Shown here in pieces: positions 9,724 to 29,097 of a stretch of DNA of 64,000 bases. Source of the stretch: Verrucomicrobiota bacterium (GTDB lineage: Bacteria; Verrucomicrobiota; Verrucomicrobiia; Limisphaerales; Palsa-1400); contig JBEKYR010000019.1 in NCBI GenBank assembly GCA_049510745.1, positions 14,231 to 78,230 of the forward strand, in the 5' to 3' direction. A model generated the notes under the pieces. It was not told where the DNA came from. It saw only the letters and a program-made list of their open reading frames with translations, and searched no databases. Within the stretch, counting starts at the first letter, position 1, and each line of letters starts with the position of its first letter. The position numbers and the translations under genes were made by a program.

Positions 9724-11669
9724 CCGCGCTGCGCCGCCACATCATGCTCGGCACCGCCGGGCACGTGGACCACGGCAAGAGCGCGCTGGTCAAGCTGCTC
9801 ACCGGCTGCGAAACCGACACGCTGGCGGAGGAAAAACAGCGCGGCCTCACGATTGACCTCGGCTTCGCGCCCTGCCAGCTCGCGGACAAACGGGTGGTCG
9901 GGGTGGTGGACGTTCCCGGCCACGTGGATTTCATCCGCAACATGGTCGCCGGCGCGCACGGCATCGACGTGGTCATCTTTGTCGTCGCGGCGGACGATGG
10001 CATCATGCCGCAAACGCACGAGCACCTGCACATTCTCACGCTGATGGGGTTGCGCCACGGGCTGGTGGCGCTGACGAAAATTGATCTCGTGGACGCCGCC
10101 CGGCGGGATTTTGTGATCCAGGATTTGCGGCGGCTGCTGGCGGAAACCTTTTTGGCCGGCGCGCCCATTTGTCCGGTCTCCAACGTCACCGGCGAAGGCC
10201 TCGACGATTTTTTTGACGCGTTGAACCGGACCGTGGACGCGTGCGGCGACCGGCCTTGCGCCGGGCCGTTCCGGCTGTGGGTCGAGGATGCGTTCAGCAT
10301 CCGCGGCACGGGCACAGTCGTCACCGGCATTCCCACCCATGGCCGGGTTCGCCCTGGCGACGAGCTTCATCTCTTGCCCGCCGGTCTGGCCGGGCACGTC
10401 CGCCGGATGCAGGTTTATGGCGAGGACGCCGCGGAAGGAAGCGCCGGGGAATGTGTCGCGCTGAACATACCGGAACTGGAGCACGAAGCCGTCCGGCGCG
10501 GCCTGGCTCTCTGCGCTTCAAATATGTTCGAGCCGAGCATGATGGCCGAGGCGGAATTGCAAATTTTGAAATCCATCCAAACCAACATCGAGGACTACCT
10601 CGAAGTGCAACTTCATGTTGGAACCGCCTCGGTCCCGGCGCGCCTGGCGATGCTGGAAAACACCGCCATGACCGGCGGTCAAAGACAATTCGTCCAGCTT
10701 CGCCTCGCCTCACCGCTGCCGCTCGTGCCCGGGGAGCGGTTTGTGGCGCGGGCCAATGTTGCCGGCGCGGGCCTCAGCGGGCTGACGACCATCGGCGGCG
10801 GACAAATTCTCGGCTTGAGCAACGCGCGGTTGCGCCGGAAAAAACCATGGACGCTCGACCTGCTCGCCACCCGGCGCGAAGCCGTCCAGCTTCCGCTGCG
10901 CTGGTGCGAACAGATGGTGCGCGAAAGCGAATCGCCCGCCACCGTGGCCAGCCTCCAAAAAAAATGCTGGAACCGCCCGGAGGAAATCGCCGAAGCGCTC
11001 GAACGGTTGCACGCCGAAAACCGGGTGGTTCAGGCGCCTGGCGGCGGATGGATTCATCGCGCCGCGATGCAAAAGATGGCGGAGAACATTCTCGCCGCCG
11101 TCCAGACTTTTCACGCGGCCAACCCGCAACGCGCCGGCATCAGCCGCGAAGAACTGCAGGCGGCGCTCAAAGCCGATCCCGTTTTTCTGGAGGCGGCGGC
11201 GGAATCGCTGCTGGACTCGAAGCAGATCGAACGCAACGGCGCGCTCTTGGCGCGGGCCGGTTGGAACGCGCGGATTCCAGAGCGCGACCAGCGCTTGTGC
11301 GACCAGATCGCCGCGAAATTGCAGCAAGGCGGCTGCTCCCCTCCGGGCTTGGCCGAACTGGCCGCGTCGGCCAACGAGCCGCTCCCGCGCGTCCTCGCGC
11401 TGGCGCAACTGCTGGCGGAACGCGGCGTGGTGGTGCGGTTGGACGACCAGATTTGGATGCACCGCGACGCCGTGGCGGCCGGCCGGGAAACGGCCCTAAG
11501 ACTTTTCACGCGCGCGCCGGCCTTTTCCACGATGGAATTCCGCGACGCCCTCGGCGTCAGCCGCAAATTCGCCGTGCCGCTGGCGGATTACCTGGACAAA
11601 ATCCGCTTCACCGTCCGCTCCGGCAACAATCGCACGCCGGGAGCGGAAGCCAGAAAACTCTTTCCATGA
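9720..11669 (+). CDS. selB: Selenocysteine-specific translation elongation factor
   Basis: GTAGHVDHGKS, RGLTIDLGF, DVPGH, TKID and the C-terminal winged-helix motif FRDALGVSRKFAVPL. Confidence 0.97.
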   Translation: MTALRRHIMLGTAGHVDHGKSALVKLLTGCETDTLAEEKQRGLTIDLGFAPCQLADKRVVGVVDVPGHVDFIRNMVAGAHGIDVVIFVVAADDGIMPQTHEHLHILTLMGLRHGLVALTKIDLVDAARRDFVIQDLRRLLAETFLAGAPICPVSNVTGEGLDDFFDALNRTVDACGDRPCAGPFRLWVEDAFSIRGTGTVVTGIPTHGRVRPGDELHLLPAGLAGHVRRMQVYGEDAAEGSAGECVALNIPELEHEAVRRGLALCASNMFEPSMMAEAELQILKSIQTNIEDYLEVQLHVGTASVPARLAMLENTAMTGGQRQFVQLRLASPLPLVPGERFVARANVAGAGLSGLTTIGGGQILGLSNARLRRKKPWTLDLLATRREAVQLPLRWCEQMVRESESPATVASLQKKCWNRPEEIAEALERLHAENRVVQAPGGGWIHRAAMQKMAENILAAVQTFHAANPQRAGISREELQAALKADPVFLEAAAESLLDSKQIERNGALLARAGWNARIPERDQRLCDQIAAKLQQGGCSPPGLAELAASANEPLPRVLALAQLLAERGVVVRLDDQIWMHRDAVAAGRETALRLFTRAPAFSTMEFRDALGVSRKFAVPLADYLDKIRFTVRSGNNRTPGAEARKLFP

Positions 11670-13288
11670 AAATTGATTTTGCCAAACGCCGCCGCGTGAT
11701 GGAGCGGTCGCAGCTTCTGGGGCATTGCATCTGCGACGTGCAACGGCCCTGTCCGTGCGATGTGCTTCGTGAACAGAATCTTTGTCCCTGCGCCGGAGAG
11801 CGGCCTGACACGGTTGACATTTCGCAGGTGAAATTGACGCAACTGGCGCGCAATGCCGGGTGCGCCTCCAAGCTCGCACCCGCCGATTTGGACGCGCTGC
11901 TGGGCCGGCTGCCGGCGGTGGAGGACCCGGCGGTGATTTCCGGCCTGGCCGCCGCCGATGACGCGGCGATTTACCGAATGGCGGAGAACCTTTGCCTGGT
12001 GCAGACGGTGGACGTGTTCACGCCTTGCGTGGACGACCCGCGGCTCTTCGGCAAAATCTGCGCGGCCAATTGTCTCTCGGACATCTACGCCATGGGCGGC
12101 GAACCGCGCACGGCTTTGAGCGTGCTGGCGTTTCCTTCCGAAAAACTGCCGGGCGAAATTATTTTTCAAATGCTCGACGGCGCAATGGAGGTTTTCAAGC
12201 AAGCCGGCGTCGCGCTCGTCGGCGGGCACAGCATCAAGGATGATGAAATCAAACTCGGCTTTGCCATCACGGGCCTGATCGATCCCGCCGTGGCCGCCGC
12301 CCTGGATAAGCCCAATGCCGGCGACGCGCTGGTCCTGACCAAACCGCTCGGCACGGGTGTGCTGGCGTTTTGCCGCCAAATCGGGCGCGAGCATCCGGCA
12401 GGCATCGCGGCGGCCGAACTTTCCATGTCCGCGCTGAACCAGGCGGCAGCGGAGGCGATGAAAGAAGCGGGCGCGTCGGCCTGCACGGACGTCACGGGCT
12501 TCGGCCTCTTCGCCCATCTGCTGCGGATGCTGCGGCCGGGCGGACTGGGCGCGGAAATTTTCGCGGAGACGCTGCCGGCCTTCGACGGCGCGATGGACGC
12601 CCTGCGGCAAGGCGTGATTCCGGGCGCGATTGAGCGCAACCGCGAGTATGCCGGCGACGCGCTTCACGTTGCGCCGGGCGTAAACGAGGCCGCGGTGAAC
12701 CTGGGATTCGACGCGCAGACTTCCGGCGGCTTGCTGATCGCCGTTCCGCCGGAGCGGCTGGAACGGTTGCGGCAATCTCTGGCCCGGCGCGGCGCCGGCC
12801 ATTTTGTCATCGGCAAAATCGTTGCTGAAGCCGGACAGATTTATCTTTCAGCGGCCGGCAACAACACGGCGGAAATTTCAAGATTGAATTCAACCCTTCA
12901 ACCGCGGAACATTGATTCCATGACAACACCAAAGAAAAATTCCCCGCCCCGCCACGGCGATTGCTGCGCGGGCGCGGGCGAAACCGCAGCCGGTTCCGCC
13001 GCCGAATCAGAAAAGGCCTTTGACGCGCTGATCCGGTCGGTGCGATCGGCGGGCGCGCTGGATGAAAAGACGAAGGAACTTATTCTGTTCAGCCTGGTCG
13101 TGGGCAGCCGTTGTCAACCATGTTTTGAGGCGCATCTGCGCAAGGCGCGCGAACTGGGCCTCTCGCAGGCGGAACTGGACGAGGCGGCGTGGTGCGCCAT
13201 CGCCCTGGGCGGCGCGCCGGTCATGATGTTTTATCAGGAATGCCTGGAGCGGATTCAATCGGGCAAGGCGGACCGGGCGCGACCTTGA
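11666..13288 (+). CDS. selD: Selenophosphate synthetase (Cys form) with a Cys-rich N-terminal extension and a C-terminal CMD/AhpD-like domain
   Basis: LTQL..AGCASK, DDAAIY, QTVDVFTP, SDIYAMGG, GGHS, LTKPLGTG, TDVTGFGL, DAQTSGGLL. Start set at ATG 11666, overlapping the selB stop. Confidence 0.93.
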   Translation: MKIDFAKRRRVMERSQLLGHCICDVQRPCPCDVLREQNLCPCAGERPDTVDISQVKLTQLARNAGCASKLAPADLDALLGRLPAVEDPAVISGLAAADDAAIYRMAENLCLVQTVDVFTPCVDDPRLFGKICAANCLSDIYAMGGEPRTALSVLAFPSEKLPGEIIFQMLDGAMEVFKQAGVALVGGHSIKDDEIKLGFAITGLIDPAVAAALDKPNAGDALVLTKPLGTGVLAFCRQIGREHPAGIAAAELSMSALNQAAAEAMKEAGASACTDVTGFGLFAHLLRMLRPGGLGAEIFAETLPAFDGAMDALRQGVIPGAIERNREYAGDALHVAPGVNEAAVNLGFDAQTSGGLLIAVPPERLERLRQSLARRGAGHFVIGKIVAEAGQIYLSAAGNNTAEISRLNSTLQPRNIDSMTTPKKNSPPRHGDCCAGAGETAAGSAAESEKAFDALIRSVRSAGALDEKTKELILFSLVVGSRCQPCFEAHLRKARELGLSQAELDEAAWCAIALGGAPVMMFYQECLERIQSGKADRARP

Positions 13289-14121: not shown

Positions 14122-16416
14122 ATGGCATACGAAGAACTGGTCATTGATCTACTGAAGGCGGAGCGTGAGGAAGACGTTACTGCCGCGCTCACAGTCTATG
14201 GCTTGGAGAAATTCACTGATTCGAATTGGATTCCATATGGGGGAACGCTTTTTGAAAATAATTACGGATTGATAGGGACGCAACAGGCTGATTCGCTTGG
14301 CGCTCTAGTCGAAAAGGTCGTGAATTCGATTGATGCAGTTCTGATGCGGGAATGTCTAGCGAGAAACCTCGATCCCAGAAGTAATCTTGTGCCGCGAACG
14401 ATGAACGAAGCGGCTGAACAGTTCTTGAACATTCCAGAAGGCAATTTAGCCAAGCTGTCTCCAACACAACGGACAGAACTGGCCGAAAAGAATATCAGCA
14501 TCATCGTGACAGGGCAGAAGCCTGACGAAGGCAACCCATGCATCATAGTTGCTGACACCGGAGAGGGACAGAGGCCCGAAGACTTCAAAGACACCCTTGT
14601 TTCATTGCTTCGCAGCAACAAATGTTCTGTCCCGTTTGTTCAGGGCAAATTCAACATGGGCAGTACTGGCAGCCTAGTGTTTTGTAGCCCGAACAAGAAT
14701 TACCAGTTGATCATTTCACGACGTAACGCGGCAATTCCTACAGCCCGAAATTCAAAATGGGGATTCACTTTAATCAGGAAGCGTCCTCCAATGAAGAATG
14801 AGAAGAATGAGCGTTATGAATATCTCGCGCCGAAAGGGAAGATCTGTGAACTCGATCTTGATGAAATCCCAATTTTTCCAGACGCCGAAAATGTGCCCTA
14901 CAAACGCCCAATCAAATGCGGGACGATCGTAAAGCTTTACGAGTATGACCTTCCGAGAAGTATAAAGACGATGGCGACCGCAGATTTCTACCGGGCTTTA
15001 TCAACCAAGCTCTGGACGGTGGTCGTTCCGATGCGAATTTATGAGGCGCGGGGTTACAAAGGTCACACTCTTGAGAGCACGTTTTCTGGGATGAACATCC
15101 GGCTTGAAGATGACAAAGGTGACGTCCTGGAGGAAGGGTTTCCATGCAATTTTACTCTTAATATTCCGAAGGTCGGAATGGTTGATGGGCGCATTTGCCT
15201 ATTCAAAAAGGACGCCGAAATCTCACGTTGGGTAAGTTCACGAGAGGCGATCATTTACACTATTAACGGCCAGTCTCACGGCGCGCTGCCGAATGATTTT
15301 TTCCGACGCCAGTCAGTCAATCTCCCGTGGATACAGAAACAACTCTTGATCAACATTGATTGTTCGCGCCTCGACCAGCAATTGATCAACAGAATGTTTA
15401 TGACCAGTCGCGACAGGCAGCGCGATGTTCAGGAAAAAGACTTCCTAGAGTCTGCCCTGGCCGAATTTGTTCGCAAGCATCCGGGGCTTCGGGAGTGGAA
15501 CGAGCGACGCCACAGAGAAACGGTCGAGGAACAGTTCGTGGAGGAATCAGAAACGATCGAACTATTTGAAAAATTAGTAGCGCAGAATCCAGCACTCGCT
15601 GAGATTCTCGGTGTTGGTCTCAAAATCAAAGTCCCAAAGCCCGGCGAACAGCCGACTTCAAAGTTCGAAGGCCAAAGATTCCCAACGTTTTTGAAACTCG
15701 AAGACGCCCATAACAACGACGATTTCGTCAAAAAGTGTCCCCAGAATTCCTATTGTCGCGTTACTTTATTAACCGATGCGGAAAACGATTATTTGGTCCG
15801 AGCGATTGAGCCGGGGAAACTTATCATCAGACCGGAAGCATTGGTCAAGAGTACTAGCCTCTACAATGGCCGGTTGGAACTGCAACTAGCCCCGGAAAAA
15901 ATGTACGATGTTGGTCACCGTATTGAAGTAAAGGTAATGTTAACCAGCCCGAACTCGACCGAGGGCTACTTTTCAGTTCGGTTTTGGCTGGAGATCGATT
16001 CGCCAGTGCAGCCAAAGAAGAGTCCTCCCAGCCCGCCCAAGCCGCCAAAAGTAACGACCGTGGCCCTGCCTGAAATCAAAGAAATCAAAAAGGATCAATG
16101 GGCCGAGGCTATCGAAATTACTTCCGACGATGATGTCGTGAAGATAATGAAGGACAACCAAGGGACGACTTCTCTCGTGAACATGGATAATCGCCACTAC
16201 CGCCGCTATGTTTACGCCAACCCCAAGCGAGAGCAGGAGATTAGAAACCTCTACAAGATCTCATCAACAATCATGGGGCTTTGGCTGCTCGAACAGGTTG
16301 ATAAAGGTGGTCTCCAGGAGGAAAACCGAAGATCGGTGAGTAACTCACTTGGCCGGCTTCTGCTTCCTTTGGTTGATTCACTAGGGAGCAAGTTGGCTGA
16401 ATTAGAGCAAGGGTAG
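14122..16416 (+). CDS. GHKL (Hsp90/MutL/MORC-like) ATPase-domain protein of unknown function
   Basis: N-box EKVVNSIDA, G1 DTGEG, G2 GKFNMG; visibly lower GC than the flanks. Confidence 0.7.
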   Translation: MAYEELVIDLLKAEREEDVTAALTVYGLEKFTDSNWIPYGGTLFENNYGLIGTQQADSLGALVEKVVNSIDAVLMRECLARNLDPRSNLVPRTMNEAAEQFLNIPEGNLAKLSPTQRTELAEKNISIIVTGQKPDEGNPCIIVADTGEGQRPEDFKDTLVSLLRSNKCSVPFVQGKFNMGSTGSLVFCSPNKNYQLIISRRNAAIPTARNSKWGFTLIRKRPPMKNEKNERYEYLAPKGKICELDLDEIPIFPDAENVPYKRPIKCGTIVKLYEYDLPRSIKTMATADFYRALSTKLWTVVVPMRIYEARGYKGHTLESTFSGMNIRLEDDKGDVLEEGFPCNFTLNIPKVGMVDGRICLFKKDAEISRWVSSREAIIYTINGQSHGALPNDFFRRQSVNLPWIQKQLLINIDCSRLDQQLINRMFMTSRDRQRDVQEKDFLESALAEFVRKHPGLREWNERRHRETVEEQFVEESETIELFEKLVAQNPALAEILGVGLKIKVPKPGEQPTSKFEGQRFPTFLKLEDAHNNDDFVKKCPQNSYCRVTLLTDAENDYLVRAIEPGKLIIRPEALVKSTSLYNGRLELQLAPEKMYDVGHRIEVKVMLTSPNSTEGYFSVRFWLEIDSPVQPKKSPPSPPKPPKVTTVALPEIKEIKKDQWAEAIEITSDDDVVKIMKDNQGTTSLVNMDNRHYRRYVYANPKREQEIRNLYKISSTIMGLWLLEQVDKGGLQEENRRSVSNSLGRLLLPLVDSLGSKLAELEQG

Positions 16417-16592: not shown

Positions 16593-17477
16593 TCACTTTT
16601 GACACTCCTCATTAGACGTGGTTTGCGGCAGGGCAAAGCACGGTTCAATGGCGCCGCAGGTGGCGCATTCCAGGCAGCGGATGCAGCCGGAAACGTTGAC
16701 GGCCTGATCCACTTTCACACCCATCGGGCAGCGGCTGCGGCAGAGGTTGCATTCGACGCATTGCTGCGGATTGAACCGGAGATGAAACAGGCTCAACCGG
16801 TTGAAGAGCGCGAGCAACCCGCCGAGCGGACAAAACACGCGGCACCACGGCCGGTGAATGAAAAGCGCGGCCGCAAGAAAGGAGAGCAAAATGCCGCTCT
16901 TCAACCCGCTCATCAGCCAACCGTTGCCGGCAAGCAGGCTTTGCACGGAGTAAGGCACGCCGGCTTCCAGCGCGCCGGCCGGACAAAGCCGGCAAATGGA
17001 AATGACCTGCCTTTCAAATGGAATGCCGTTGAAACCCAGAATCAGCGGCAGAAGAATCACCAATCCTACCAGAACGAAGTAACGGCCGTAACCGGTCCAG
17101 GACGGCAGGATGATTTTCCGGGTGGTGATTTTGCCGAGCAAGTCCTGGAGAAAACCGAACGGACAAGCCCAGCCGCAAACGATGGAACCGCCGGCCGCGC
17201 CGACGAGCACGAGCACGCCGATCAATAAATACGGCACTTCCCCCGCCACTGGCAGCAGCGCCGCGTAGTTGGCCATCACACCCACCGGGCAGGCGAAGGC
17301 CGAGAGCGGGCACGAGTAACAGTGGAACACGCAGCCGGGAATGCCGTGCAGCCACCGGCCCAGCGGCGCGAGCCACAGGCCGAGAAAACCGGTTTGCACC
17401 CAGGGACGCCAGCGCGAGAGTTTTCGTCCGAGCGCCGCCGGCTTCCATTCAGGGCAATTGGGAACGGGACATTCCAT
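16593..17477 (-). CDS. Membrane-bound polyferredoxin, 4Fe-4S binding protein (NapH/YccM-like)
   Basis: HCYSCP, CPVG, CGWACPFG, CRLCPAG, WCRVFCPLG, CVECNLCRSRCP, CIRCLECATC, with TM segments. Confidence 0.88.
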   Translation of the reverse strand: MECPVPNCPEWKPAALGRKLSRWRPWVQTGFLGLWLAPLGRWLHGIPGCVFHCYSCPLSAFACPVGVMANYAALLPVAGEVPYLLIGVLVLVGAAGGSIVCGWACPFGFLQDLLGKITTRKIILPSWTGYGRYFVLVGLVILLPLILGFNGIPFERQVISICRLCPAGALEAGVPYSVQSLLAGNGWLMSGLKSGILLSFLAAALFIHRPWCRVFCPLGGLLALFNRLSLFHLRFNPQQCVECNLCRSRCPMGVKVDQAVNVSGCIRCLECATCGAIEPCFALPQTTSNEECQK

Positions 17478-17487
17478 GGGAACAGGT

Positions 17488-17506
17488 CGGCCACGCCACG
17501 TGGCCG
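17488..17506 (-). promoter_or_regulatory. Candidate SECIS hairpin for the CPTU protein
   Basis: 7-bp perfect stem; GUGGC loop starts 21 nt after the UGA. Confidence 0.7.
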
Positions 17507-17510
17507 GAAT

Positions 17511-17885
17511 TCATCTTATTCAGGTGGGACAGGGCGTTTTTGCGCCGAGGTCCACGCGGATTTTCCACGCCGGCGGCTGGGTATGGGCCTGTTGTTTGGC
17601 CCAGCGGTCAAGCGCCTCGCCGGGATTGGCCACGGCATCGAGTTTCGGCGGCGGCGGCGGCGCGACTTGGTCCGGGTATTGCAAACCGCCGGAGGAGAAG
17701 GCTTTGACCAACTGCGTTTCCCACGCCGTGTTTCCGTCCGTGGTGTCCACGTTGGTCAGATGCCGCGCGCCGCTAAACAGCAGCGCCGCGCCGGTCAGCG
17801 CGACAACCAAGCCGGACCAGAAATCGTGGTCTTCCCGCGCGCGCGACGCGCGATTGACCGGTGGCTGGGGGACTCGCTTGAACAT
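17511..17885 (-). CDS. Putative small single-TM selenoprotein ending C-P-T-U-I-R (Sec at UGA 17522-17520)
   Basis: ATG 17885 lies just downstream of selC; one hydrophobic helix. The UGA completes a CxxU motif and is followed by hairpin CGGCCAC-GTGGC-GTGGCCG. The next in-frame UGA (17513-17511) is taken as the stop. Confidence 0.7.
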
Positions 17886-17903
17886 GCTACGGATTGGGGA
17901 AAA

Positions 17904-18000
17904 TGGCGGAGGTGGATGGGAATCGAACCCACCTGGGACTTTGTTGAGTCCCACGCTGGTTTTGAAGACCAGGAGCGCCACCAGGTCGCCCCACACCTCC
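17904..18000 (-). tRNA. selC: tRNA-Sec (UCA)
   Basis: 97 nt, GGAGGTG...CACCTCC-GCCA. Anticodon arm CTGGT-CTTCAAA-ACCAG, long variable arm TGGGACT/AGTCCCA, TTCGATT T-loop. Confidence 0.97.
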
Positions 18001-18160
18001 CCGGCGGACCGCCGCGCCGCTGGCCAATGGCAGGCGTGATTGATTTCCGGCGGGCCGCATCACACAGGTATATTGACAGATTGGAGCGGATAACTCAATC
18101 CGAATTTAGTCGCCAGCCGCGCCATAAATGGCAGACTGTTTGCACGTCAGGAAAGAATTT

Positions 18161-18997
18161 ATGGACATTCGAAAAGCCGTCATCACCGCCGCCGGTCCGG
18201 GCCAGCGGACGCTGCCGCTGCAAACGCTGGTTGACCGCGACGGCAAAACCAAGACCGCGCTCGGCATCATCGTGGAGGAGGCGCTCAATTGCGGCGCGGA
18301 GGAAACCTGCGTGGTGGTCCATCCGGGCGACGCCGAGGCCTACCGCGCCGCCGCCGGGCCGCACGGCAAGCGATTGCAGTTCGTGGAGCAGGAGAAGGCG
18401 CTGGGCTACGGCCACGCCGTCTGGTGCGCCCGCGCCTTCACCGGATCGGAGCCGTTTCTGCTCCTGGTCGGCGATCATCTTTATCTGAGCCGGGAGAAAC
18501 GCAGTTGCGCGCGGCAATTGGTCGAGGTCGCCGCGGCCGAGGCCTGCGCCGTTTCCGCCGTGCAGGCCACGCACGAAAGCAAACTGCCCTATTACGGCGT
18601 GGCGGGCGGGCGGCTGGCGGAGAACCGCAAAGGCCTTTACCTCATTTCCGAGGTGCTGGAGAAACCGACCCCGACCGTCGCCGAACAACGCCTCATCGTT
18701 CCCGGATTGCGCGCGGGCCATTATCTTTGTTTTTTCGGGATGCACGTTCTGACGCCGGCGGTGATGGATTTGCTGGGGGCGGAAATGGCCGCCGGCCAGG
18801 CGGCCAGCCTGAGTCAAACACTCGCCAAGCTGGCCAGCCGCGAGCGCTATCTGGCCTGCGAATTACAGGGACGCCGGTTTGACATCGGTTTGAAATACGG
18901 CCTGCTGACCGCGCAACTGGCGCTGGCCCTGAGCAGCCCGGCCCGCTCCGAAGTGCTCGCCGGACTCGTCGAACTCCTCGCCCAGGAACCCCATTGA
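18161..18997 (+). CDS. Sugar-phosphate nucleotidyltransferase (GalU-like)
   Basis: [40 protein letters not shown]. Confidence 0.85.
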
Positions 18998-19005
18998 TCA
19001 CGCGC

Positions 19006-22000
19006 ATGGCCAGCCCGCTCCTCGACATCATCACCTCGGCGGACGCGAGAATTCGCAACCAGCCGCTCGACGCCTTTTGCGCCCGCGCCCCGGCAGATGA
19101 ACTGCTGGCGGCCTGCGCGGAACTGGAGGGCTTCCGCCGCCGCAGCGACAATCTTTACGAGCGCGTCCGCGCGTTGTTCTTCCTTTACGCGATTCACCGT
19201 TTTCATCTGCCGGGGAAACTGCCCGCGGGCGCGGACGGCATGATTCCCTTCAAAGGATTCGAACATCTGCTGCACCGCCGGTTTGAAGAGGCGCTCGACC
19301 AGTTTCTTTCCGCGCAAAAAAGCGGCGGCCCCAGCGACGCCCTTTGCAGCGCGCTGGCCGCCGTGTATCAACGCATCGGCTTTCAGACGCTGGCCGACCA
19401 GGTGCGGCGCAGCGTCCGTTCGGTGCGCGGCAACCAATGGATGTTCCGCATGGGCCATCCGGAGGATCATCCGTTGCGCGTGCGCCCGGAACTGCTGCAA
19501 CGCGGCGCGGACGGCGCCTTCCCCGTGCTGCGCGAACGCACCCCGGTGCGGATGGATTTGAGCCATTCGGGCTGGAGCGACATTTTCTTTCTCGGCATGG
19601 ATTTTCCCGAAGGCGCCCGCGTGCTCAACGTCTCCATTGACCTGGGCGTTCACGGGCGCGACCAGGCGGCGCAGCCGCCGGTGGAGGCCTGCTTGCGGGT
19701 GATTGACGAACCGGTTTTGCGCCTGACCAGCGTGGACCTCGGCGCCACGGCGGAGATCAACAATCTGGCCGAGGTTTTTGATTTCGCCCGCGACTACCTC
19801 GGATTGCTCAAAGCGGCCGTCATCGCTGCCGGCATTGTGCCGCCGGGCATTGAAGGTTCGGGACTCAATCTGGCCGACTTGCTCGCGCGGGTCGCCGGGG
19901 CCGGGCGCGGCCTGGAATTGGTCAGCCACGTCAACGATATTCCGAAAGGCTCGCGCCTGGCGGTCTCGACCAACCTGCTCGCCTCGCTGATTTCCGTCTG
20001 CATGAGGGCCACCGGCCAGGCCAAGTCGCTGACTGGCGCGCTGGCCGAGGAGGAACGGCGCCTGGTGCTGGCGCGCGCGTTGCTGGGCGAATGGCTCGGC
20101 GGCTCGGGCGGCGGCTGGCAGGATTCCGGCGGCGTGTGGCCGGGCATGAAACTCATTTGTGGCGTGACCGCGACGGAAGGCGATCCCGAATTTGGCATCA
20201 GCCGGGGCCGGCTCATGCCGGCGCACCGCATTCTGGATCGCCACGACGTTTCGTCCGAGACGCGCGAGCGTTTGCAGCAAAGCCTCGTGCTCGTCCACGG
20301 CGGCATGGCGCAAAACGTCGGGCCGATCCTCGAAATGGTGACGGAAAAGTATCTGCTCCGTTCCGCCGCCGAATGGGCCGGACGGCAGCAGGCCATCGGG
20401 TTGCTCGATGAAATCGTGTCGGCGCTGCGCGCCGGAGATGTGCGCGGGGTGGGCGCCCTGACCACGCGCAATTTTTGCGAGCCGATCCAAACCATCATTC
20501 CGTGGGCCAGCAACGCCTTCACCGAATCGGTCATCGCGTCCGTGCGGGACGAGTTTGGCGCGGATTTCTGGGGGTTCTGGATGCTCGGCGGCATGTCCGG
20601 CGGCGGGATGGGTTTCATCTTTGAGCCGCAACGCAAGGCGCGGGCGCAGCAGCGGTTGCAGGAAATCATGTCGCAAACCAAGCGCGAACTGCAACACGCG
20701 CTGCCCTTTGCCATGGAGCCGGTGGTCTATGATTTCGCCATCAACGAGCGCGGCACCTGGGCGGACCTGCTGCGCGGCGACGAGGCGTTGCTGCCGCGCG
20801 GCTACTACGCGCTGCATGTTCCGCGCTGGCTGCGGGCCGATCCGCAGGCGCTGACCAGGGCGCAGCGCGCCGAACTGGACAAGTTCGGCGCCGCCTGCCG
20901 CACGCGAACGGAATTGTCCGGCATGATGCAGACGCTCTTCGACCGCCTGCTGCCCCGGCTCAAATCCGAGGGCGGCTCCCAGCAAAGCCTGGCGGAATTG
21001 CTCGAACAAAACGGCTTCGACCGCGTGCAGCATGAGCAGATTCGCGACGATTTGAAAGACGGCCGCATCGGCTTGGCCCAAAACCGCCTGCCCGCCAGCG
21101 CCGACATCAAGGACGTGCAGGATGCCGATGTGTTCAATGCCACCGGGCCGTTGGCGGAGGAATTGCGCCAGGCCGGCCTGGCCGCCCTCGCCCGCGGCGA
21201 ACTGGCGGTGGTCACGCTGGCCGCCGGCGCGGGCAGCCGCTGGACGGAAGGCGCTGGTGTGGTCAAGGCGCTGCATCCGTTCTGCAAATTCAACGGCCTG
21301 CACCGGACGTTCATCGAAACGCACCTGGCCAAGAGCCGCCGTATCGGCCAACTGGCCGGCCAGACGCTGCCGCACTTCTTCACCACCAGCTACCTGACCC
21401 ACGCGGCCACCGAGGAATTCCTGCGCCGGAAGAAAAATCATCATTATCCCGGACCGCTGCTCCTGTCGCCCGGCAGGTCCATCGGGCTGCGGATGATCCC
21501 GATGGTGCGCGACCTGCGCTTTCTCTGGGAGGAGATGCCGCAGCAACGGCTCGACGAGCAGCAGCAAAAAGTGCGCGACAGCCTGCGGGCCGCGCTCCTC
21601 AACTGGGCCCGTTCGGCGGGCGAGGGCGGCGATTACACCGACAATCTCCCGGCCCAATGCCTGCACCCGGTGGGACACTGGTTCGAGGTGCCGAACCTGC
21701 TGCGCAACGGCGTGCTGGCGCGCTTGCTCGCCGAACGTCCGCAGTTGCGGCACCTGATGTTGCACAACATCGACACGCTCGGGGCGGACGCGGACCCGGC
21801 GCTCTTCGGTTTGCATCTGGCGCAGGAGGGCTGCCTGACGTTCGAGGTCATCACGCGCCGGCTGGAGGACCGCGGCGGCGGCCTGGCCCGCGTTAATGGC
21901 CAGGTGCGGCTGGTGGAAGGACTGGCCATGCCGCGCGAGGAGGATGAGTTCCAACTCCGCTTCTACAATTCAAACACCTGCTGGATCGACATCGACAAAC

Positions 22001-22326
22001 TGCTGGCGGTTTTCGGCTTGAGCCGGGCCGACCTTTCCAAGGCGGAACACGTCGCCGCCGCCGTGCGCGCGCTGGCCGCGCGCATGCCGACCTACATCAC
22101 GATCAAGGATGTCAAGAAGCGCTGGGGCCACGGCCAGGAAGACGTGTTCCCGGTCAGCCAGTTTGAGAAACTGTGGGTGAACATGACCGCGTTGCCGGAA
22201 GTGAAAACGCGCTTTGTCGTGGTGCCGCGCCTGCGGGGACAACAGCTCAAGGACCAGGCGCAACTGGACGGCTGGCTGCGCGATGGCTCGGCCGATTTCG
22301 TCAACCAGCTTTGTGCCTGGCCGTGA
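19006..22326 (+). CDS. Bifunctional GHMP-family sugar kinase / UDP-sugar pyrophosphorylase
   Basis: [36 protein letters not shown] in the N-half; [30 protein letters not shown] in the C-half. Confidence 0.8.
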
Positions 22327-22376
22327 ATACGGATTGATATTGCAGTAAGCCCTTCGATTTGCTAATAGCCTGTCTA

Positions 22377-24476
22377 ATGGCAAAGCAAAAGACTGGTGGC
22401 TTATCATGGCGCTGGCTGGGAACCGCCGGGGTGGCTTGCTGGACGTGTGCGCTGTTGGTTGTGCTTTGCTCGGAAAACAGGCTTCGCGCGGCTGATTCTC
22501 TTCTTTCCGGTTCTCCGTCCTCAAACGCCGTCATGGCTGCGCTGGAGTATCAGGAAACAGACTCTGGCGTCATCAACTGGGGCGTTTCCCTGACGCCGCG
22601 GACCAGTCCTTTCAAAAAAGAGCCGGCGGCGGCTTCGGGCAAAATCATTCGCGGCGTTTTGAATTTCGGCGCCGATTCCAGCAACTCCATTCCCTTTCTC
22701 TGGCAGTGCCAGGCGGGAAAACTTTACCTCGACCTCAATCGCAACCAGGATTTGACCGACGATCCCTCCGGCCTGTTCTTGGCGCGCGCCGCGAAGCCGG
22801 ATAATTACCAGACCTTTGCGAACGTCCACCTGCTTTTCAACACCGCTTCCGGCAGGTGCCGGGTGCTGGCGGACCTCTCCTTCTGGGACTACAGTGCGCC
22901 GCCAATTTGCAGCTTCGCGGTGCGCTCGTTCTGGCAAGGCAAACTGAGGTTGCAAGGGCGGGATTGGCAGGTGGGCATCGTCCCGAATATCCTGGACCGA
23001 TCGGGCTTGTTCGAGAACAGCCGGTTGCTGCTGCGTCCCTGGGATAAACGAAGCCAGCCGTTCAACGCGGATGATGGGTTGCTCGCCACTGTTCCCTTCT
23101 CGCGGAAACTTTTTGTGGATGGCCACGCCTATCAACTGGAGTGCGTCGCCCGTTCGCAAGACGGCGAAGCCAGGCCCGCGCTCCAATTCACGGAACAATC
23201 CGTCGCGCTGGGCGAAGTGAAAATCACCGGCCAATTCATCCGCCGCCTTGTTCTGCAGGGCGAGGCGTTCCTGGTGGTGCTCGATCAGCCGGCAGGCGTC
23301 GTGAAAATCCCGGCCGGCAGCTATCACCAGCCCGAGATCCTGCTCGAACAAGACGGCGTCGCGGCCTTCTCCCGCAATTCCGGCCAGTGGCAAATTGGCC
23401 GGCAGATTTCCGTGCGCGACAAGGCACAGGTGGCATTGAACGCGGGCGGGCCGTTGACCAATTCCGTCGCCACCGGCCGCCACGGTCAGGATTTGCGTCT
23501 GGATTATTGCCTGCTCGGCGTGGGCGGCGAAACTTACCAACTGGCCAGGCAAGATCGCTCCAAGCCGCCGGAGTTCGCGGTTTACAAGGGCGGAAAAAAA
23601 ATCGCGTCCGGCAGATTTGAGTTTGGCTGAGGCAACACCTGCTCGCACTCATGGCGAGTGCCTCTCACCGCCGGCGGCAAACTGTCCCTTGTGGCTTCGT
23701 CCGACCTCGGAGCGCTCGGTGCGAAGGAAGGTCCGGCGGTCATCTACGACTGGGTGTTGCCCAGCCTGGCGCCGCTGTTGCTGCCGTGGCTGGTCATTCT
23801 GGGATTGCTCACCTTGAAACGGAATCGTTGCGCGGCCGCGTGGTGGATTTGGCTGCCGCTCGGATATGTGATCGCGTTTACGTTGGCGCCGCTGGACATC
23901 ATGCCCGCGGGAACAGATTTTTTCCTGGATGTCATCGCGGCGCTGGCGGCGGGGCTGGGCGCGGTCTGGCTCCTGACAGATTATCTCCGGCGGCCACATC
24001 GGTTCGTTACGTTTCTGTGCCTCCTGCTCGCCTTGGCCGGTTTCAGCGCGCTGGCCTTTGTGTCCGCACAAAGCTGGAGTTTCACGTCGGAAACATTTGT
24101 GGCCGGCATCGTTCTGGCCGTGGGCGTGGTGGTCAGTGCGGTGGCGTTGAGTCTGGCCGGGCTGATCTGCCGCGGCCGTTATCGTCGCGTCGGCCTTTAT
24201 GGGTGGCTGCTCCTCTTGCTGGCCGTCATCTGGCTGGTGATCACCGGGCCTTTCTTTTTGTTCGCGCTCATCGCTTCAGGCGGAAGAGTGTCTTGGGGCG
24301 GATTCTTTGTTCCCGTTTTTGCGTTGGTGACGCTCCATTTCGCCACCCTGCTGCCGTTCCTGATCCTGTCCTCGGCCAGCCCGTTTTACCGCCAACGGCT
24401 CAAGGCCCTGCTGCACGTCACACCGGAAGCGCCGCCCGTGCTGGCGCCTTTGCCGGATGCCGGTTTAAAAACTTGA
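22377..24476 (+). CDS. Putative exported, membrane-anchored selenoprotein (FEFG-U-GNTC; Sec at UGA 23628-23630) joining track ORFs 22359-23630 and 23658-24476
   Basis: The two ORFs share a frame and are separated by a single UGA with no other stop. The read-through motif matches the paralog at 24508, and a hairpin follows. Architecture is an N-terminal hydrophobic segment, a soluble domain and a multi-TM C-terminus. Confidence 0.8.
23645..23661 (+). promoter_or_regulatory. Candidate SECIS hairpin
   Basis: GCACTC-ATGGC-GAGTGC; loop starts 21 nt after the UGA. Confidence 0.75.
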
Positions 24477-24507
24477 ACTCGATGAACACCAAGCCAACCA
24501 TGATGTT

Positions 24508-25779
24508 ATGAAACTTTCCAAACAACTGTTCCTGGCCGGAATGGTTCTCGCCGGCGCCGCCTTCGCGCAATCCGAGCAATGGCTGGAATACCACACCGGC
24601 GCCGAGGGCCGCGCCTACCAGCAGGTGGAACTGACCACCAATCCGCCCCCCGGCGTCGCTCTGCCGAAGTTCAATGCGCCGCCCTATTTCGCCCGCTGGC
24701 TCACGCCGATGGACCCCGCCGGCGGGCGCTGGCTCTGCCTGGACCGCACGCGCAAGTCCGGACCCTATGACCGGCTGTTCTTTGACAACAACGGCAATGG
24801 CCGGCTGGACGACAAATCGCCCCTCCCGGCGCGGCTGGATTCCTCCTTCGCCTATTTTCCGCCAGCCCGCGTTGTGTTCAAGGGCGAGGACGGGCCGATC
24901 ACCTATCATCTTGTCTTCCGCTTCTATCAATACGAAAAGAATCCCCCGCAATTGCTGGCCTCCTCCGCCGGCTGGTATGAAGGTCTGGTCAATTTCGACG
25001 GCGCGAAAAAGCGCATTCAACTCATCGACGGCAACGTCAACGGCACGTTCAACGACGTCGCCCCGGACCCGTATGACTGCGACCGCGTCCAAGTCGAGGG
25101 CGACAAGACCAGCGAACGGTTTTTGGGCCGGATGCTGGAAGTGGACGGGAAGTTTTACCGGATCGAAGCCGCCCGCGACGGCGCGTTCGTCAAAGTGCAG
25201 AAGGCGGAGAACGTCACCCTCGGCCAGGTGCGTGTGCCGGAAAACATTTCCGAATTCGCCGCCTTCGGCCCGAACGGCCATTTCGTGCGCACACCGGCGG
25301 ACGGCCAATTCACCTTGCCGGCGGGCCATTACCGGATTTTCCACTGGACGATCAGCCGCAAGGATGAAAAGGGCGCGCCGTGGACGCTCTCAGGCTATAA
25401 TTTTCCCAAAACCGCCACCTTCGAGGTCGCCGCCGATAAGACCGCCTTGGTGCAAATCGGTGAGCCGGTGCAAGCCGTGCTCAAGGCGGCGGAGGGCGCC
25501 AAGCGTCAAGTCGATTTCAGCCTCAGCTTCGTGGGCCGGCAAAAGGAATCCATCGAGATGCTGTGCGACGGCCAGCGCCCGCGCGGGCCGAAATTGACGT
25601 TGGCCAACAGCGACGGGACGCTGTGTTATACGAACACTTTCGAGTTTGGATGAGGCGGCGTTTGCTCGCTCTCATGGCGGGAGCCTAAAAATGTGCGGCG
25701 TCCGTTGGTTGGCGGCGTCAAAATTTTCAGCCCGTTCCAGGTGCTGACGAGTCCGTTGACGCTCGCGCCAAAAAAATAA
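24508..25779 (+). CDS. Putative secreted selenoprotein (FEFG-U-GGVC; Sec at UGA 25651-25653)
   Basis: Signal peptide ending AFA. Read-through adds GGVCSLSWREP...APKK and ends at TAA 25779, 12 nt before the next ATG. Has a DNNGNGRLDD loop resembling the paralog's DLNRNQDLTDD. Confidence 0.8.
25668..25684 (+). promoter_or_regulatory. Candidate SECIS hairpin
   Basis: GCTCTC-ATGGC-GGGAGC; loop starts 21 nt after the UGA; compensatory changes relative to 23645-23661. Confidence 0.75.
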
Positions 25780-25791
25780 ACTGATCATCGC

Positions 25792-28700
25792 ATGAAAACG
25801 ACACGGCAATTCCTTCTGGTCTCTGCCGCTTGGGCGCTCCTGGGCGTCAGCACGCACGCCCAGACGCTGGAGCGGGTGGGGGTTCAAAAAGTGGCGGACA
25901 CAGCCACGAACGCTGGCGCGCAAAAACTTACCGGAACGGTCACCGACGCCGCCGGCCATCCCCTGGCCGGCGCGACGGTGGAGTATTGGCGTTACGAGGG
26001 AAATCGGCTCCTGGCGAGTCCCTTGGAATTGATCGGGCAAATCACTACGGAAACGAACGGCGCTTTTGAATTCCAACTCTCGCGGGCGGCCGGATTCCTC
26101 CTGGCACGAAAGCCGGGCCTGGCCCCGGCCTGGATACAATTGGGCCAGCCGTATCCTTCCGTCGGTGACAGGGGAGAGAATTTGATGCTGACTCCGCCCG
26201 CGGCGCTGGCGGGCGTGGTGGTGGACGAAGCGGACAAACCTGTTCCAAACGCCCGGGTTTCCGTGGCCATTGCCATCTCCGAAATGTCGCAGGAGGAGGG
26301 AGCGCGAAGTCTTAATTATTTCACTGGCAAACCCGCGCGCGATTGTTTTGCCGCCCGCACGGATGCCGCCGGCCGTTTCCGCATCGAGAATTTTCCGACC
26401 AATGGCACGGCCGCCCTGACCGTTCAGGCGCCGGGAAAAGCTCTGCGCCAATCACCGCAGGAAGCCGGCGGCATGGACTCGCTGCCTTGGCGCGCGGGCC
26501 AGCAAGACATCAAATTGGTCGTGGAACCGGCCGGCAGCGTCGAAGGAAGGATTATCGTCGAGGGCAGCAATCAACCGCCGCCCGTCGCGCGGCTGACGTT
26601 GCAGCCCGATGGGCCGGGCTTTGCCGCGCTTGACGAGCGCGAGCCGGCGCCATCCGGCGCGGACGGCGCGTTCCAACTCAGCGACGTGCCCGCCGGTTCT
26701 TATCACATTCATGCCGTCTTTGGAACCAATGCCGTTCCGGAATGGGTCGCAGACATGGTTCCAGTTTCGGTTGAGTCCGGCCAACCCACGCGCGGCGTGC
26801 AGGTGACTGCGGTGCGCGGCGGCGTGCTGGAAGTGGCCGTGCTGGGTCAAAATGATCGCAAACCACTGGCGCAAATTATGGTCAATGCCGTCAAGGAGAA
26901 TTTTCAATCCGCCGCCAGTTCGGACAGCAACGGCATCGCTCTCCTGCGGCTGCCGCCTGGAGATTATCAGGTGGCGGCGTTTCGTGAATCCATGCCCGCG
27001 AGCCAGACTCCCGCCAGCGTGGAAGCCGGCAAAACCAACCGCGTGGAGATTGAAATCGCCCCGCCGAGAAAAATCACCGGCATCGTCCGCCAACCGGACG
27101 GCCAGCTGGCGGCGGGGTTGCGGGTGAGATTGGTGGGTGGGTTTGGCCCCGGGGCGGGCGAAGTCAAGACCGATCCCGGCGGCCAGTTTAGTTTGGAATG
27201 GAATCAGCGCCGATTCGGACAGAACGACACGACTGCCTGCGTTCTCGTGCGGGACGCGGAACACAATCTGGCCGTGGCGCAGGACATTGACGAAGACACC
27301 GGCCCGCTCGACCTGAAACTCGCGCCGGGGCTGACGCTGGCGGGCCGGGCGGAATCCGACGGCAAACCCCTCACGAACGCGGCCGCCGCGCTGATTTTCT
27401 TTACCGGCAGAAGGGGCATGCACCTCGCCGGATTGAGCCGCGAAACCAACACGCCGGGCCGGTTTGAAATTCCCGCCATTCCGCCCGGACGAAAATACGG
27501 CGTCCTGGTCTCCGCTCCGGGTTACGGACAGAAGGCGAATTACGATGTGAATGCCGCCGCCGAAGGTGGCCGCATGGAACTGGATCCCTTTGAGCTTAAA
27601 CCTGCCAACCTCAAACTCGCCGGCCAGTTGCTCGACGCGGACGACAAGCCGGTCGCAGGCGCCTATGTGAATCTTTACGGAGAGGGCCAGCCCAGTGCAA
27701 ACGCGCGCACGGACCGCGAGGGTCGCTTCCGCTTCGAGCATGTCTGCGAAGGCCCGGCTCGAATCTCGGCCAACAAGCAGAATTCATTCGGCAATATGTC
27801 GGCGGAAGGCGGCGACACCAACGTCGTTCTGCGGCTCGGTCAAACCCTCAACAACTCCCCGGGTTCCACCGCCCATAAACTCAAAGGCACTGTGACCGAC
27901 CCCGACGGCAAACCCGCCGCCGGCGCGCAGTTGGCGGTGTTTCCGTCCTTTGATGTGAGTTGGACAAAGACCGCGACCAACGGCGCCTTCAGCCTCACTT
28001 GGTCGCTCCAGCCCTGGCAAATGCAGCAGTCAGGCGGCGCCGCGCTGCTGGTGGCCCGCGACCCGGCCCGCAATCTGGCCGCCACCGAAGAGTTGCCGGA
28101 GGAAACCACCAACCTCGACGTGAAATTGAAACCGGCCCTGACCGTCACCGGACTGGTTGAAAAAGATGACGACTCTCCACTCGCGGGCGCGCAGGTCGGT
28201 GTCTGGCTCAAGGCGGGCAACATGTACGACCAGTTGAACCAACAAATGGCTGGGACCGACGCCCAAGGCCGCTACGAAATCAAGTGCCTGCCGCCGGATG
28301 CGTCATACATTGTTTTCGCCACCGCCAGCGGCCACGGTCGAAGCCAGCAGCAAGTTCAGAACGATTCCGAAACAAACCGCGTGGAACTATCGCCCTTCGT
28401 CCTCAAGCTGGCCGACCGTTTTTTGGCCGGCCAGGTGCTCAACGAAAATGACAAGCCCGTTTCCGGCGCGAACGTGTCGTTGAATGGCGAAGACCAGCCC
28501 CAAGCCAGCATGACCACCGACAGCAAGGGCCGCTTTCACTTCCAGGTTTGCGAAGGGCAGGTCCGCCTCTTCGCCAATTCCCCCCAAGGCGGTGAATTCG
28601 CGCAAGCCACCGCCGAAGCGGGCGACACCAACGTCGTGATGACTTTGAGTTCCCAGGCGGGGAATATCCGCGAGACACCGCACCGCGCCTCGCTCAAAGG

Positions 28701-29097
28701 CAGTCCGCTGCCGGACTTGGCGGCCGTCAATCTCGCCGGCGACGCCGCCCCCGCCGGCCAGCCGGTGTTGTTATGCCTGTTCGACGCGGGCCAGCGTTCG
28801 TCGCGACACGTCGTCCACCAGTTGGATGGACAGGCCCCCGCGCTGCGGCAGCAAGGCGTCACGGTGCTGGGCGTTCAAGCCGCGGTCACCAGCGATGACA
28901 TACTCAACGAATGGAAAAGCGCCAGTCCGGTTTCATTCCCGCTCGGACGCGTGGCGGAGAAATCCGAAAAATCAAAATGGGCCTTGGCCGTTCCGGCCTT
29001 GCCGTGGCTGATCCTGGCCGACGCCCATCATCGCATCATCGCCGAAGGCTTCCCGCTCGACGACCTGGACGCGCAGATCAAAACCCTGGCCAAGTGA
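25792..29097 (+). CDS. Secreted protein with repeated carboxypeptidase-regulatory-like beta-sandwich domains and a C-terminal thioredoxin-like fold lacking CxxC
   Basis: Many G-x-V-x-D-x-x-G-x-P-x-x-G-A and TDxxGRF repeats. C-terminal GQPVLLCLFDAGQRSSR...LPWLILAD resembles TlpA/redoxin. Confidence 0.75.
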   Translation: MKTTRQFLLVSAAWALLGVSTHAQTLERVGVQKVADTATNAGAQKLTGTVTDAAGHPLAGATVEYWRYEGNRLLASPLELIGQITTETNGAFEFQLSRAAGFLLARKPGLAPAWIQLGQPYPSVGDRGENLMLTPPAALAGVVVDEADKPVPNARVSVAIAISEMSQEEGARSLNYFTGKPARDCFAARTDAAGRFRIENFPTNGTAALTVQAPGKALRQSPQEAGGMDSLPWRAGQQDIKLVVEPAGSVEGRIIVEGSNQPPPVARLTLQPDGPGFAALDEREPAPSGADGAFQLSDVPAGSYHIHAVFGTNAVPEWVADMVPVSVESGQPTRGVQVTAVRGGVLEVAVLGQNDRKPLAQIMVNAVKENFQSAASSDSNGIALLRLPPGDYQVAAFRESMPASQTPASVEAGKTNRVEIEIAPPRKITGIVRQPDGQLAAGLRVRLVGGFGPGAGEVKTDPGGQFSLEWNQRRFGQNDTTACVLVRDAEHNLAVAQDIDEDTGPLDLKLAPGLTLAGRAESDGKPLTNAAAALIFFTGRRGMHLAGLSRETNTPGRFEIPAIPPGRKYGVLVSAPGYGQKANYDVNAAAEGGRMELDPFELKPANLKLAGQLLDADDKPVAGAYVNLYGEGQPSANARTDREGRFRFEHVCEGPARISANKQNSFGNMSAEGGDTNVVLRLGQTLNNSPGSTAHKLKGTVTDPDGKPAAGAQLAVFPSFDVSWTKTATNGAFSLTWSLQPWQMQQSGGAALLVARDPARNLAATEELPEETTNLDVKLKPALTVTGLVEKDDDSPLAGAQVGVWLKAGNMYDQLNQQMAGTDAQGRYEIKCLPPDASYIVFATASGHGRSQQQVQNDSETNRVELSPFVLKLADRFLAGQVLNENDKPVSGANVSLNGEDQPQASMTTDSKGRFHFQVCEGQVRLFANSPQGGEFAQATAEAGDTNVVMTLSSQAGNIRETPHRASLKGSPLPDLAAVNLAGDAAPAGQPVLLCLFDAGQRSSRHVVHQLDGQAPALRQQGVTVLGVQAAVTSDDILNEWKSASPVSFPLGRVAEKSEKSKWALAVPALPWLILADAHHRIIAEGFPLDDLDAQIKTLAK

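Follow-up and report, generated by a model that had tools for sequence, protein, structure and literature searches.

In Escherichia coli the selenocysteine insertion sequence (SECIS) has the loop GGUC, and the SECIS sequence and the winged-helix domain of SelB are known to co-vary between lineages, as between E. coli and Desulfomicrobium or Moorella. Thioredoxin-reductase-like proteins carry selenocysteine (Sec) at the C terminus. According to the published consensus for bacterial SECIS elements (Zhang and Gladyshev 2005, as summarised in PMC13188914), the loop has 3-9 nucleotides (nt) and the stem 4-16 base pairs (bp). The same summary (PMC13188914) asks for at least one G among the first two bases of the loop, a spacing of 16-37 nt and a folding energy at or below -7.5 kcal/mol. 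The discovery of bacterial selenoproteins depends on the SECIS consensus and on Sec/cysteine (Cys) pairs. Here, a stretch of 64,000 nt from a Verrucomicrobiota bacterium (assembly GCA_049510745.1, contig JBEKYR010000019.1; C19:14231-78230), referred to below as the window, was found to contain three genes in which an in-frame UGA is followed by a hairpin with a shared loop. The genome has 5.6 Mb and 60% G+C. The three hairpins are very probably a variant class of bacterial SECIS, with the UGAs as the Sec codons of three selenoprotein genes.

Two of the sites are in paralogous genes on the plus strand, termed the long and the short paralog of a large family. The UGA of the long paralog (23628-23630, predicted Sec at residue 424), which is kept as TGA in all homologous sites, is followed 14 nt past the TGA by the SECIS-like hairpin GCACUC/AUGGC/GAGUGC (23645-23661), recovered de novo in the consensus fold. 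The UGA of the short paralog (25651-25653, predicted Sec at residue 382) is followed, again after 14 nt, by GCUCUC/AUGGC/GGGAGC (25668-25684). The third UGA (17520-17522, minus strand, predicted Sec at residue 122) belongs to a small gene, and its hairpin, CGGCCAC/GUGGC/GUGGCCG (17488-17506, minus strand), starts 13 nt past the TGA; from its end it is 10 nt to the start codon of a NapH-like gene. The stems have 6-7 bp, the loops are 5 nt long (AUGGC, AUGGC and GUGGC, in this order), and the first loop base is at all three sites the 21st base past the A of the TGA. The letters and coordinates recorded in the first-pass annotation of this DNA all match the window sequence, and the two differences it described between the first and second stems, A-U to U-A and U-A to U-G, are present. 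Its spacing of exactly 21 stood for the large family, in which the UGA-to-loop distance was 20 nt at 135 of 135 sites, and gave way in the family of the small gene, in which the distance ranged from 19 to 23 nt at the 83 sites (20 nt at 53, 21 nt at 20, 19 nt at 5, 22 nt at 3 and 23 nt at 2).

The variant class can be described as a G+C-rich stem of 6-7 bp with a closing C-G pair and a 5-nt R-Y-G-G-C loop about 20 nt (19-23) past the UGA. The presence of a stem-loop just past an in-frame UGA, the loop size, the stem length, the UGA-loop distance and the folding energy all agree with the consensus in its summarised form. Like the canonical SECIS of the E. coli fdhF type, the element is a stem-loop past the UGA with a 5-nt loop, an upper stem of 6-7 bp and guanines in the loop, and it is presumably read by the C-terminal domain of SelB. 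Unlike the canonical type, which has G[G/U] at loop positions 1-2, it has an invariant GG at positions 3-4 and no evident bulged U. The hairpin lies within the coding region of both paralogs, whereas in the small gene it lies past the true stop and is untranslated.

The structure of the RNA was evaluated in two alignments, A3 with 83 distinct rows of the small family, where the hairpin is non-coding, and A4 with 111 rows of the large family, where it is coding. In A3, 95.7% of the stem cells were paired as compared with at most 55.6% when the partners were slid. Changes on both sides were seen at 5 of the 7 pairs (36 cells), with 13 further pair types and 21 stem haplotypes, and none of 500 shuffles reached the real values. 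The closing C-G pair and the GG at loop positions 3-4 were invariant in all 83 rows; the loops were AUGGC (48), ACGGC (24), GUGGC (6), AUGGA (4) and AAGGU (1). In the large family every stem cell was paired, both in A4 (666/666 at 111 sites) and in the wider set of 135 sites (810/810), with compensatory types at three pairs (CG/UA/UG, UA/AU and CG/UA/UG). Some of these compensations alter the protein, the codon combinations being CAC..GUG (His..Val), CUC..GAG (Leu..Glu), UAC..GUA (Tyr..Val) and UAU..AUA (Tyr..Ile).

Synonymous positions within the coding hairpin are also restricted. The codon before the first x of C-S-x-S-W-R-x-P was NCG or TTG, with G as third base in 111 of 111 rows. The Ser codon inside the hairpin was TCA in 97 rows and TCG in 14, TCA making up 5% of the Ser codons of the genome, and the Arg codon was CGA in 76, CGG in 34 and AGA in one, while CGC and CGT together account for 55% of the Arg codons of the genome. 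At the flanking Gly, Cys and Pro codons all or both synonyms were used. The caveat raised at first pass, that protein constraint contributes to the loop in the paralogs, is correct in that the loop UGG is a Trp codon there; it does not extend to the small-gene hairpin, which is untranslated, or to the synonymous stem and loop positions, which are frozen. Furthermore, RNAalifold applied de novo to the 111 and 83 sites returned the same hairpin of 6 bp with a 5-nt loop in both families, with consensus folding terms of -8.5 and -11.1 kcal/mol, below the published limit of -7.5 kcal/mol. Single-sequence folds of 40 nt had energies of -15.2 to -16.1 kcal/mol and were partly alternative structures, the minimum-energy fold showing the hairpin at site 3 only. 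No SECIS family of Rfam matched, either at gathering scores or with E up to 10.

The UGAs themselves are conserved. Homologues of the large family were found in 11 of 61 related genomes (source genome included), and 22 of the 23 matches listed from these 61 genomes contained exactly one TGA; the remaining one spans residues 73-207 only, upstream of the site. Among genome and metagenome loci together, all 135 distinct large-family sites were TGA and none was Cys, in a set that includes Phycisphaerae, Sedimentisphaerales, Pirellulales and one Omnitrophota bin, as well as sites of the third paralog class described below. The small gene with its TGA was present in 11 of the 61 relatives, nearly the same genomes as the large family, and its 83 distinct sites were all TGA in a set that had been pre-filtered for TGA. 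Site 3 was held at first pass to lie in a gene not homologous to the paralogs, with the hairpin beyond its probable stop. The gene does appear to be a genuine small selenoprotein-like gene with database homologues and a conserved TGA, and its true stop, a second TGA at 17511-17513 on the minus strand, is two codons past the UGA.

The long paralog (22359-24476, about 705 residues, start codon uncertain; frames in relatives of about 690-710 residues with one TGA) consists of an N-terminal hydrophobic stretch that is a putative signal or anchor, a beta-rich domain, the motif FEFG-U-GNTCSHSWRVP, in which U is Sec, and a hydrophobic C-terminal extension. When the TGA is read as Sec, 22359-23630 is fused in frame with the downstream hydrophobic stretch, and this hydrophobic tail follows the long-paralog domain in 52 of 54 loci. 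The short paralog (24508-25779, 423 residues) begins with a hydrophobic helix that is signal-peptide-like by eye and ends at a true stop, TAA at 25777-25779, 41 residues past the Sec. The two paralogs are 24% identical (E 4e-8) and have in common the motif FEFG-U-GG(V/T)CS(L/H)SWR(E/V)P. The small gene (17511-17885, minus strand) encodes 121 residues, Sec and two further residues before the stop, with a putative single membrane span seen by eye. Its C terminus, AKTPCPT-U-IR-stop, contains a CxxU motif, and the two codons past the UGA read IK at 52 of the 83 sites of the family. The ATG of the NapH-like gene, 15 codons further downstream (17477-17522, minus strand), shares its reading frame in the source genome with the two TGAs of the small gene; this is taken to be a coincidence, because the spacing and the frame differ in several relatives.

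The possibility was considered that the UGAs are read through without Sec, a near-cognate tRNA inserting Trp, Cys or Arg and the hairpin serving as a generic stimulator. The selenium in these proteins is a prediction from sequence, and Cys homologues that would argue for a redox-active chalcogen at the UGA position are lacking. However, in most loci the genes are linked to tRNA-Sec, selA, selB and selD. In the window these are selA (8314-9723, plus strand, 538 bits), a divergent selB with the C-terminal motif SRKFAVPLADYLDK (9720-11669, plus strand), selD fused to an AhpD/CMD-like domain (11672-13288, plus strand, start approximate) and tRNA-Sec with the anticodon UCA (17904-18000, minus strand), which is separated from the small gene downstream of it by 18 nt. 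Redox selenoproteins typically show CxxU and U-x-x-x-C contexts such as these. The geometry of the hairpin is that of a bacterial SECIS, as far as the summarised consensus describes it. Moreover, 5,811 frame ends were scanned in the genome (open frames that had 100 codons or more and a codon usage like that of coding sequence), and TGA was the commonest ordinary stop, at 3,136 of them, and therefore there is no global reassignment of the codon. Read-through without Sec is considered improbable.

The same frame ends were used to evaluate the specificity of the element, a hairpin being counted if it had a closing C-G pair and an RYGGC loop 18-22 nt past the stop. It followed 3 of the 3,136 TGA ends and none of the 1,631 TAA or 1,044 TAG ends, and the three were the sites described here. 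The first-pass annotation had named as evidence against the element an equal frequency after TAA, TAG or random TGA; what was found was 3/3,136 against 0/2,675, and its remark that other TGA stops lack the hairpin was borne out genome-wide among the coding-like TGA ends. The Python scans covered the whole genome and 1.5 Mb of loci. The simpler pattern TGA-N20-RTGGC, combined with a stem of 5 bp or more, occurred 15 times in the genome, and 12 of these were out-of-frame TGAs inside other genes. Other genomic matches to the hairpin with weakly positive coding scores had broken frames or a gene in another frame and were rejected.

These counts bear on a second alternative, namely that the hairpins have no recoding role, being a by-product of the peptide in the paralogs and an unrelated regulatory, processing or terminator element at site 3, with a coincidental likeness of the loops. 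The Trp codon in the loop, the 12 chance matches in the genome and the short distance of 10 nt from hairpin 3 to the next gene would all be expected in that case. However, the synonymous positions of the coding hairpin are frozen at paired and loop bases only, amino acid changes compensate across the stem, and the non-coding hairpin keeps its loop, closing pair and UGA distance in 83 sites, with covariation. The restriction of the hairpin to three TGA ends also speaks against coincidence. As an intrinsic terminator, hairpin 3 was rejected: a terminator-like site at 17487-17507 is on the plus strand, and on the gene's own strand a T-rich tail past the hairpin was found at 0 of 83 sites. A coincidence of this kind is very improbable.

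That the UGAs are ordinary stops, with a separate or untranslated sequence downstream, can hardly be credited: gene callers do end the proteins at the UGA (about 381 residues in the large family and mostly about 121 in the small one, among the best 120 matches of each) and 145 of the best 150 large-family representatives end at or before the site, but in-frame conservation continues past the UGA (GGxCSxSWRxP plus a further 30 residues in the large family, WREPKNVxRPL and onward in the short paralog), the 270-residue hydrophobic extension of the long paralog is in the same frame without a conserved start of its own, and a second stop exactly two codons on at 83 of 83 small-family sites (TAA 66, TGA 14, TAG 3) would be unexplained if the first terminated translation.

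Several observations weigh against the interpretation of the hairpins as SECIS elements and the UGAs as Sec codons. The consensus rule, in its summarised form, of a G at loop position 1 or 2 is broken by the AUGGC and ACGGC loops; it is broken at 77 of the 83 small-family sites (AUGGC, ACGGC, AUGGA or AAGGU) and at 120 of the 135 large-family sites (AUGGC or AUGGA), and only GUGGC satisfies it, at 6 and 15 sites, respectively. Folded as single sequences, sites 1 and 2 adopt alternative structures (z -2.74 and -1.49). Three codon pairings cover all 111 large-family sites, and with so few stem types there are few independent compensatory events; the sequences are related, and the shuffle controls therefore overstate significance. 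A Cys homologue was not found among the 135 sites or the 5 representatives that span the site, so that the usual Sec/Cys-pair criterion is inapplicable. Additionally, three genomes that hold the genes, G014, G019 and G029 (87%, 78% and 64% complete), have no detected selB, and the correlation described below between SelB motif and loop type spans two or three clades with few independent events. Nevertheless, the proposal made at first pass, that the hairpin is a SECIS common to non-homologous genes, is supported by the conserved UGAs, the covariation, the specificity within the genome and the adjoining selA, selB, selD and tRNA-Sec.

The first-pass annotation had further described the element as lineage-specific and as read by the SelB of this cluster. 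The SelB proteins were compared. The seven SelBs of the cluster type are 72-100% identical to one another and 29-39% identical to all others, and the identity to the SelBs of genomes of the same family (G013 and G005) is 33%. The motif RK[FY]A.PL.DY.D[KR] was present in the last winged-helix region of 11 of 11 SelBs encoded by genomes that carry these genes (seven Verrucomicrobial, G036, four Planctomycetes) and in 0 of 8 others, of which seven read SRR[VI]..P.LE[KR].DR[DE]G and one, that of G039, RKIMVPFLEL. In the solved structures of SelB with RNA, it is this region that touches the loop of the SECIS. Reading by this SelB is upheld as a correlation, the motif accompanying the RYGGC type in 11 of 11 cases, and binding by SelB is itself a prediction.

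In relatives, five formate dehydrogenase alpha genes with Sec (loci L186, L187, L189, L190 and L191), two belonging to the family-level group of the source genome, have the UGA followed by 12 nt and a 6-bp stem with the canonical loop GGUCU, giving a spacer of 18 nt as opposed to 20 nt here. The SelBs of relatives with this canonical SECIS lack the motif of the cluster-type SelBs. Genes of this kind were absent from the genomes with the cluster and from five Planctomycete genomes with the large family, and no genome among those examined had both loop types. The RYGGC element is also present in Planctomycetota, and within the family-level group of the source genome the canonical type is found in some members. 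The element is lineage-specific, then, in the sense that it tracks the SelB type and the gene cluster, and not in the sense of taxonomy. As in the species-specific SelB-SECIS pairs of other bacteria, SECIS and the C-terminal domain of SelB vary together; in contrast to those pairs, both classes are found in one order and even in one family-level group, and the variant class travels with one gene cluster and reaches Planctomycetota.

The expectation that a scan for the hairpin would recover known selenoproteins such as formate dehydrogenase failed in the source genome, where none was found. No in-frame stop was present in its molybdopterin oxidoreductase, AhpC-TSA, thioredoxin, CMD, glutathione peroxidase or SelD genes, and these family queries gave no further selenoprotein in the genome, other families not having been searched. 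A search for Sec/Cys pairs within the genome by blastp, with 4,009 TGA-spanning peptides against all open frames, likewise gave no convincing selenoprotein. A Cys was aligned at E <1e-6 for 30 sites, which were rejected as low-complexity or antisense artefacts; one of them, in which a kinase-like paralogue with 77% identity lies at the end of contig C77, has the look of a pseudogene or an assembly end. Scoring of codon usage around every TGA was also abandoned, since it could not tell true sites from false ones; two of the real sites scored 0.10-0.28 downstream.

Judged from their sequences, the two protein families, represented by three genes here, seem to consist of selenoproteins that have no Cys counterparts and have so far gone unrecorded. 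Neither matched a Pfam family with E up to 0.01. In NCBIfam (E up to 1) there were two matches at chance level, with 15.4 bits against a cut-off of 366 for the small protein and 12.6 against 109 for the long paralog. The portions consulted of PMC13188914, PMC1088965, PMC12013277 and PMC13326102 mention neither the families nor such selenoproteins from Verrucomicrobiota or Planctomycetota, although their supplementary lists might name them. An exhaustive search of 1.84 billion representatives of 50%-identity clusters gave 1,261 large-family matches at E <=0.001. Among the best 150 of these, five span the Sec site, and none has Cys in the Sec column (G, R, S, R and L). The spanning homologues (P0369, P0265, P0342, P0365 and P0368) are distant relatives of the large family (27-37% identity), and the downstream Cys is missing as well from four of them; P0369 retains the rest of the motif, YG-L-SGTCTLSWREP, with Leu at the Sec position. 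In a further database search, the proteins that end at the UGA, with about 381 residues, were the best 120 of 589 matches.

The AlphaFold2 model of the short paralog is all-beta with multiple sandwiches and is of high confidence, with a predicted local distance difference test score (pLDDT) of 95.9. A fold search of the PDB with this model returned no match at E <=0.001, and the TM-scores were no higher than 0.18. The likeness is to generic tandem beta-sandwiches only, and therefore no function can be deduced from the structure. A third paralog class of about 500 residues, with the motif MPFG-U-DGTCGYSWR and a 7-bp form of the same hairpin, was seen in L117, L063, L152, L052 and about 20 further loci. 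In many relatives its gene lies close to the cluster but on the other strand; the class was not found in the source genome. Of the two loci L080 and L099, one, with both paralogs, is labelled as a Bifidobacteriaceae bin and the other as Candidatus Omnitrophota. The Bifidobacteriaceae label is probably a binning error, because the genes are 64% identical to Verrucomicrobial ones.

Database homologues of the small gene fall into 337 clusters at 90% identity and typically have 120-121 residues, some of the best 120 matches reaching 176; the 15 that were aligned all end at CPT, before the Sec site. The small protein resembles the selenoproteins with C-terminal CxxU of the 'UXX-star' kind in ending with C-x-x-U, two residues and a stop. 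Unlike them, it is putatively membrane-anchored, is encoded between tRNA-Sec and a NapH-like gene and matches no Pfam or NCBIfam family. 'UXX-star' and similar family names are listed in a review table. Like the SECIS elements in the 3' untranslated regions of archaea and eukaryotes, the element of the small gene, and of this gene only, is outside the translated region; it differs from these in that the hairpin is of the bacterial type, keeps a short, fixed distance to the UGA and has no kink-turn or GAA_A features.

The context of these genes was counted in 77 loci that each span 9 kb or more. They are usually arranged in the order of the long paralog with its membrane tail, the short paralog, a CarboxypepD_reg-repeat protein, tRNA-Sec, the small selenoprotein and the NapH-like ferredoxin, ending with selD-CMD, selB and selA on the other strand; in the source genome the order is rearranged. 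The long paralog was present in 54 loci, its tail in 52, the short paralog in 64, the CarboxypepD_reg-repeat protein in 60, the small gene in 51, the NapH-like gene in 50, selD-CMD in 36, selB in 25 and selA in 20. Of the 51 loci with the small gene, 50 have the NapH-like gene after it, and 43 have tRNA-Sec directly upstream of the small gene. In the window, the NapH/MauN-like membrane polyferredoxin gene (16593-17477, minus strand) comes directly after the small gene, and a 1101-residue protein with CarboxypepD_reg-like repeats (25792-29097, plus strand) is the conserved neighbour of the paralogs (60 of 77 loci).

Other features of the window were noted. The AhpD/CMD-like domain of SelD, at about residues 446-519, has no in-frame stop and matches the AhpD domains of known selenoproteins weakly. 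Upstream of selA (5939-8241, plus strand) there are genes for a 2-hydroxyglutaryl-CoA dehydratase D-component-like protein and a BadF/BadG/BcrA/BcrD-type activator ATPase. A frame of 764 residues between selD and the NapH-like gene (14122-16416, plus strand) has a weak HATPase_c_3 match (E 0.006) and is not conserved in the clusters of relatives.

A mechanism can be proposed for the reading of these UGAs as Sec. SelA and SelD would make the Sec-tRNA(Sec) that is loaded on the divergent SelB of the cluster, SelB would bind the loop of the hairpin via its last winged-helix domain, and Sec would be delivered to the UGA in the ribosomal A site at a fixed distance. The paralogs are predicted to be exported beta-sandwich proteins with the motif G-U-x-G-x-C-x-x-S-W-R. 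An extracytoplasmic redox role of the cluster proteins is speculative and is suggested because they are exported or membrane proteins, have CxxU and U-x-x-x-C motifs and adjoin a NapH-like protein. More tentatively, the cluster may be a self-contained, transferable 'selenium island', with its own tRNA-Sec, SelA, SelD-AhpD fusion and a SelB that co-evolved with the RYGGC SECIS as a second SelB-SECIS class. It would then serve only for the production of three or four Sec-only proteins without Cys counterparts, which would form a NapH-fed extracytoplasmic redox chain in peat and sediment Verrucomicrobiota and Planctomycetota. This larger picture is a possibility that we would not yet favor.

These genes fail both the SECIS-consensus and the Sec/Cys-pair tests, which would explain why large families have been stored as truncated 'hypothetical proteins'. 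The loop type together with the matching SelB motif would sharpen the annotation of selenoproteins, and a second SECIS class would offer a comparison for the recognition of RNA by SelB and perhaps a second, non-cross-reacting SelB-SECIS pair for engineered Sec insertion. The small gene, if functional, would be a natural case of a bacterial SECIS acting from untranslated RNA after a U-x-x-stop end. Finally, the association of the cluster with a NapH-like ferredoxin points to a process in peatland bacteria that depends on selenium and is so far unexplored.

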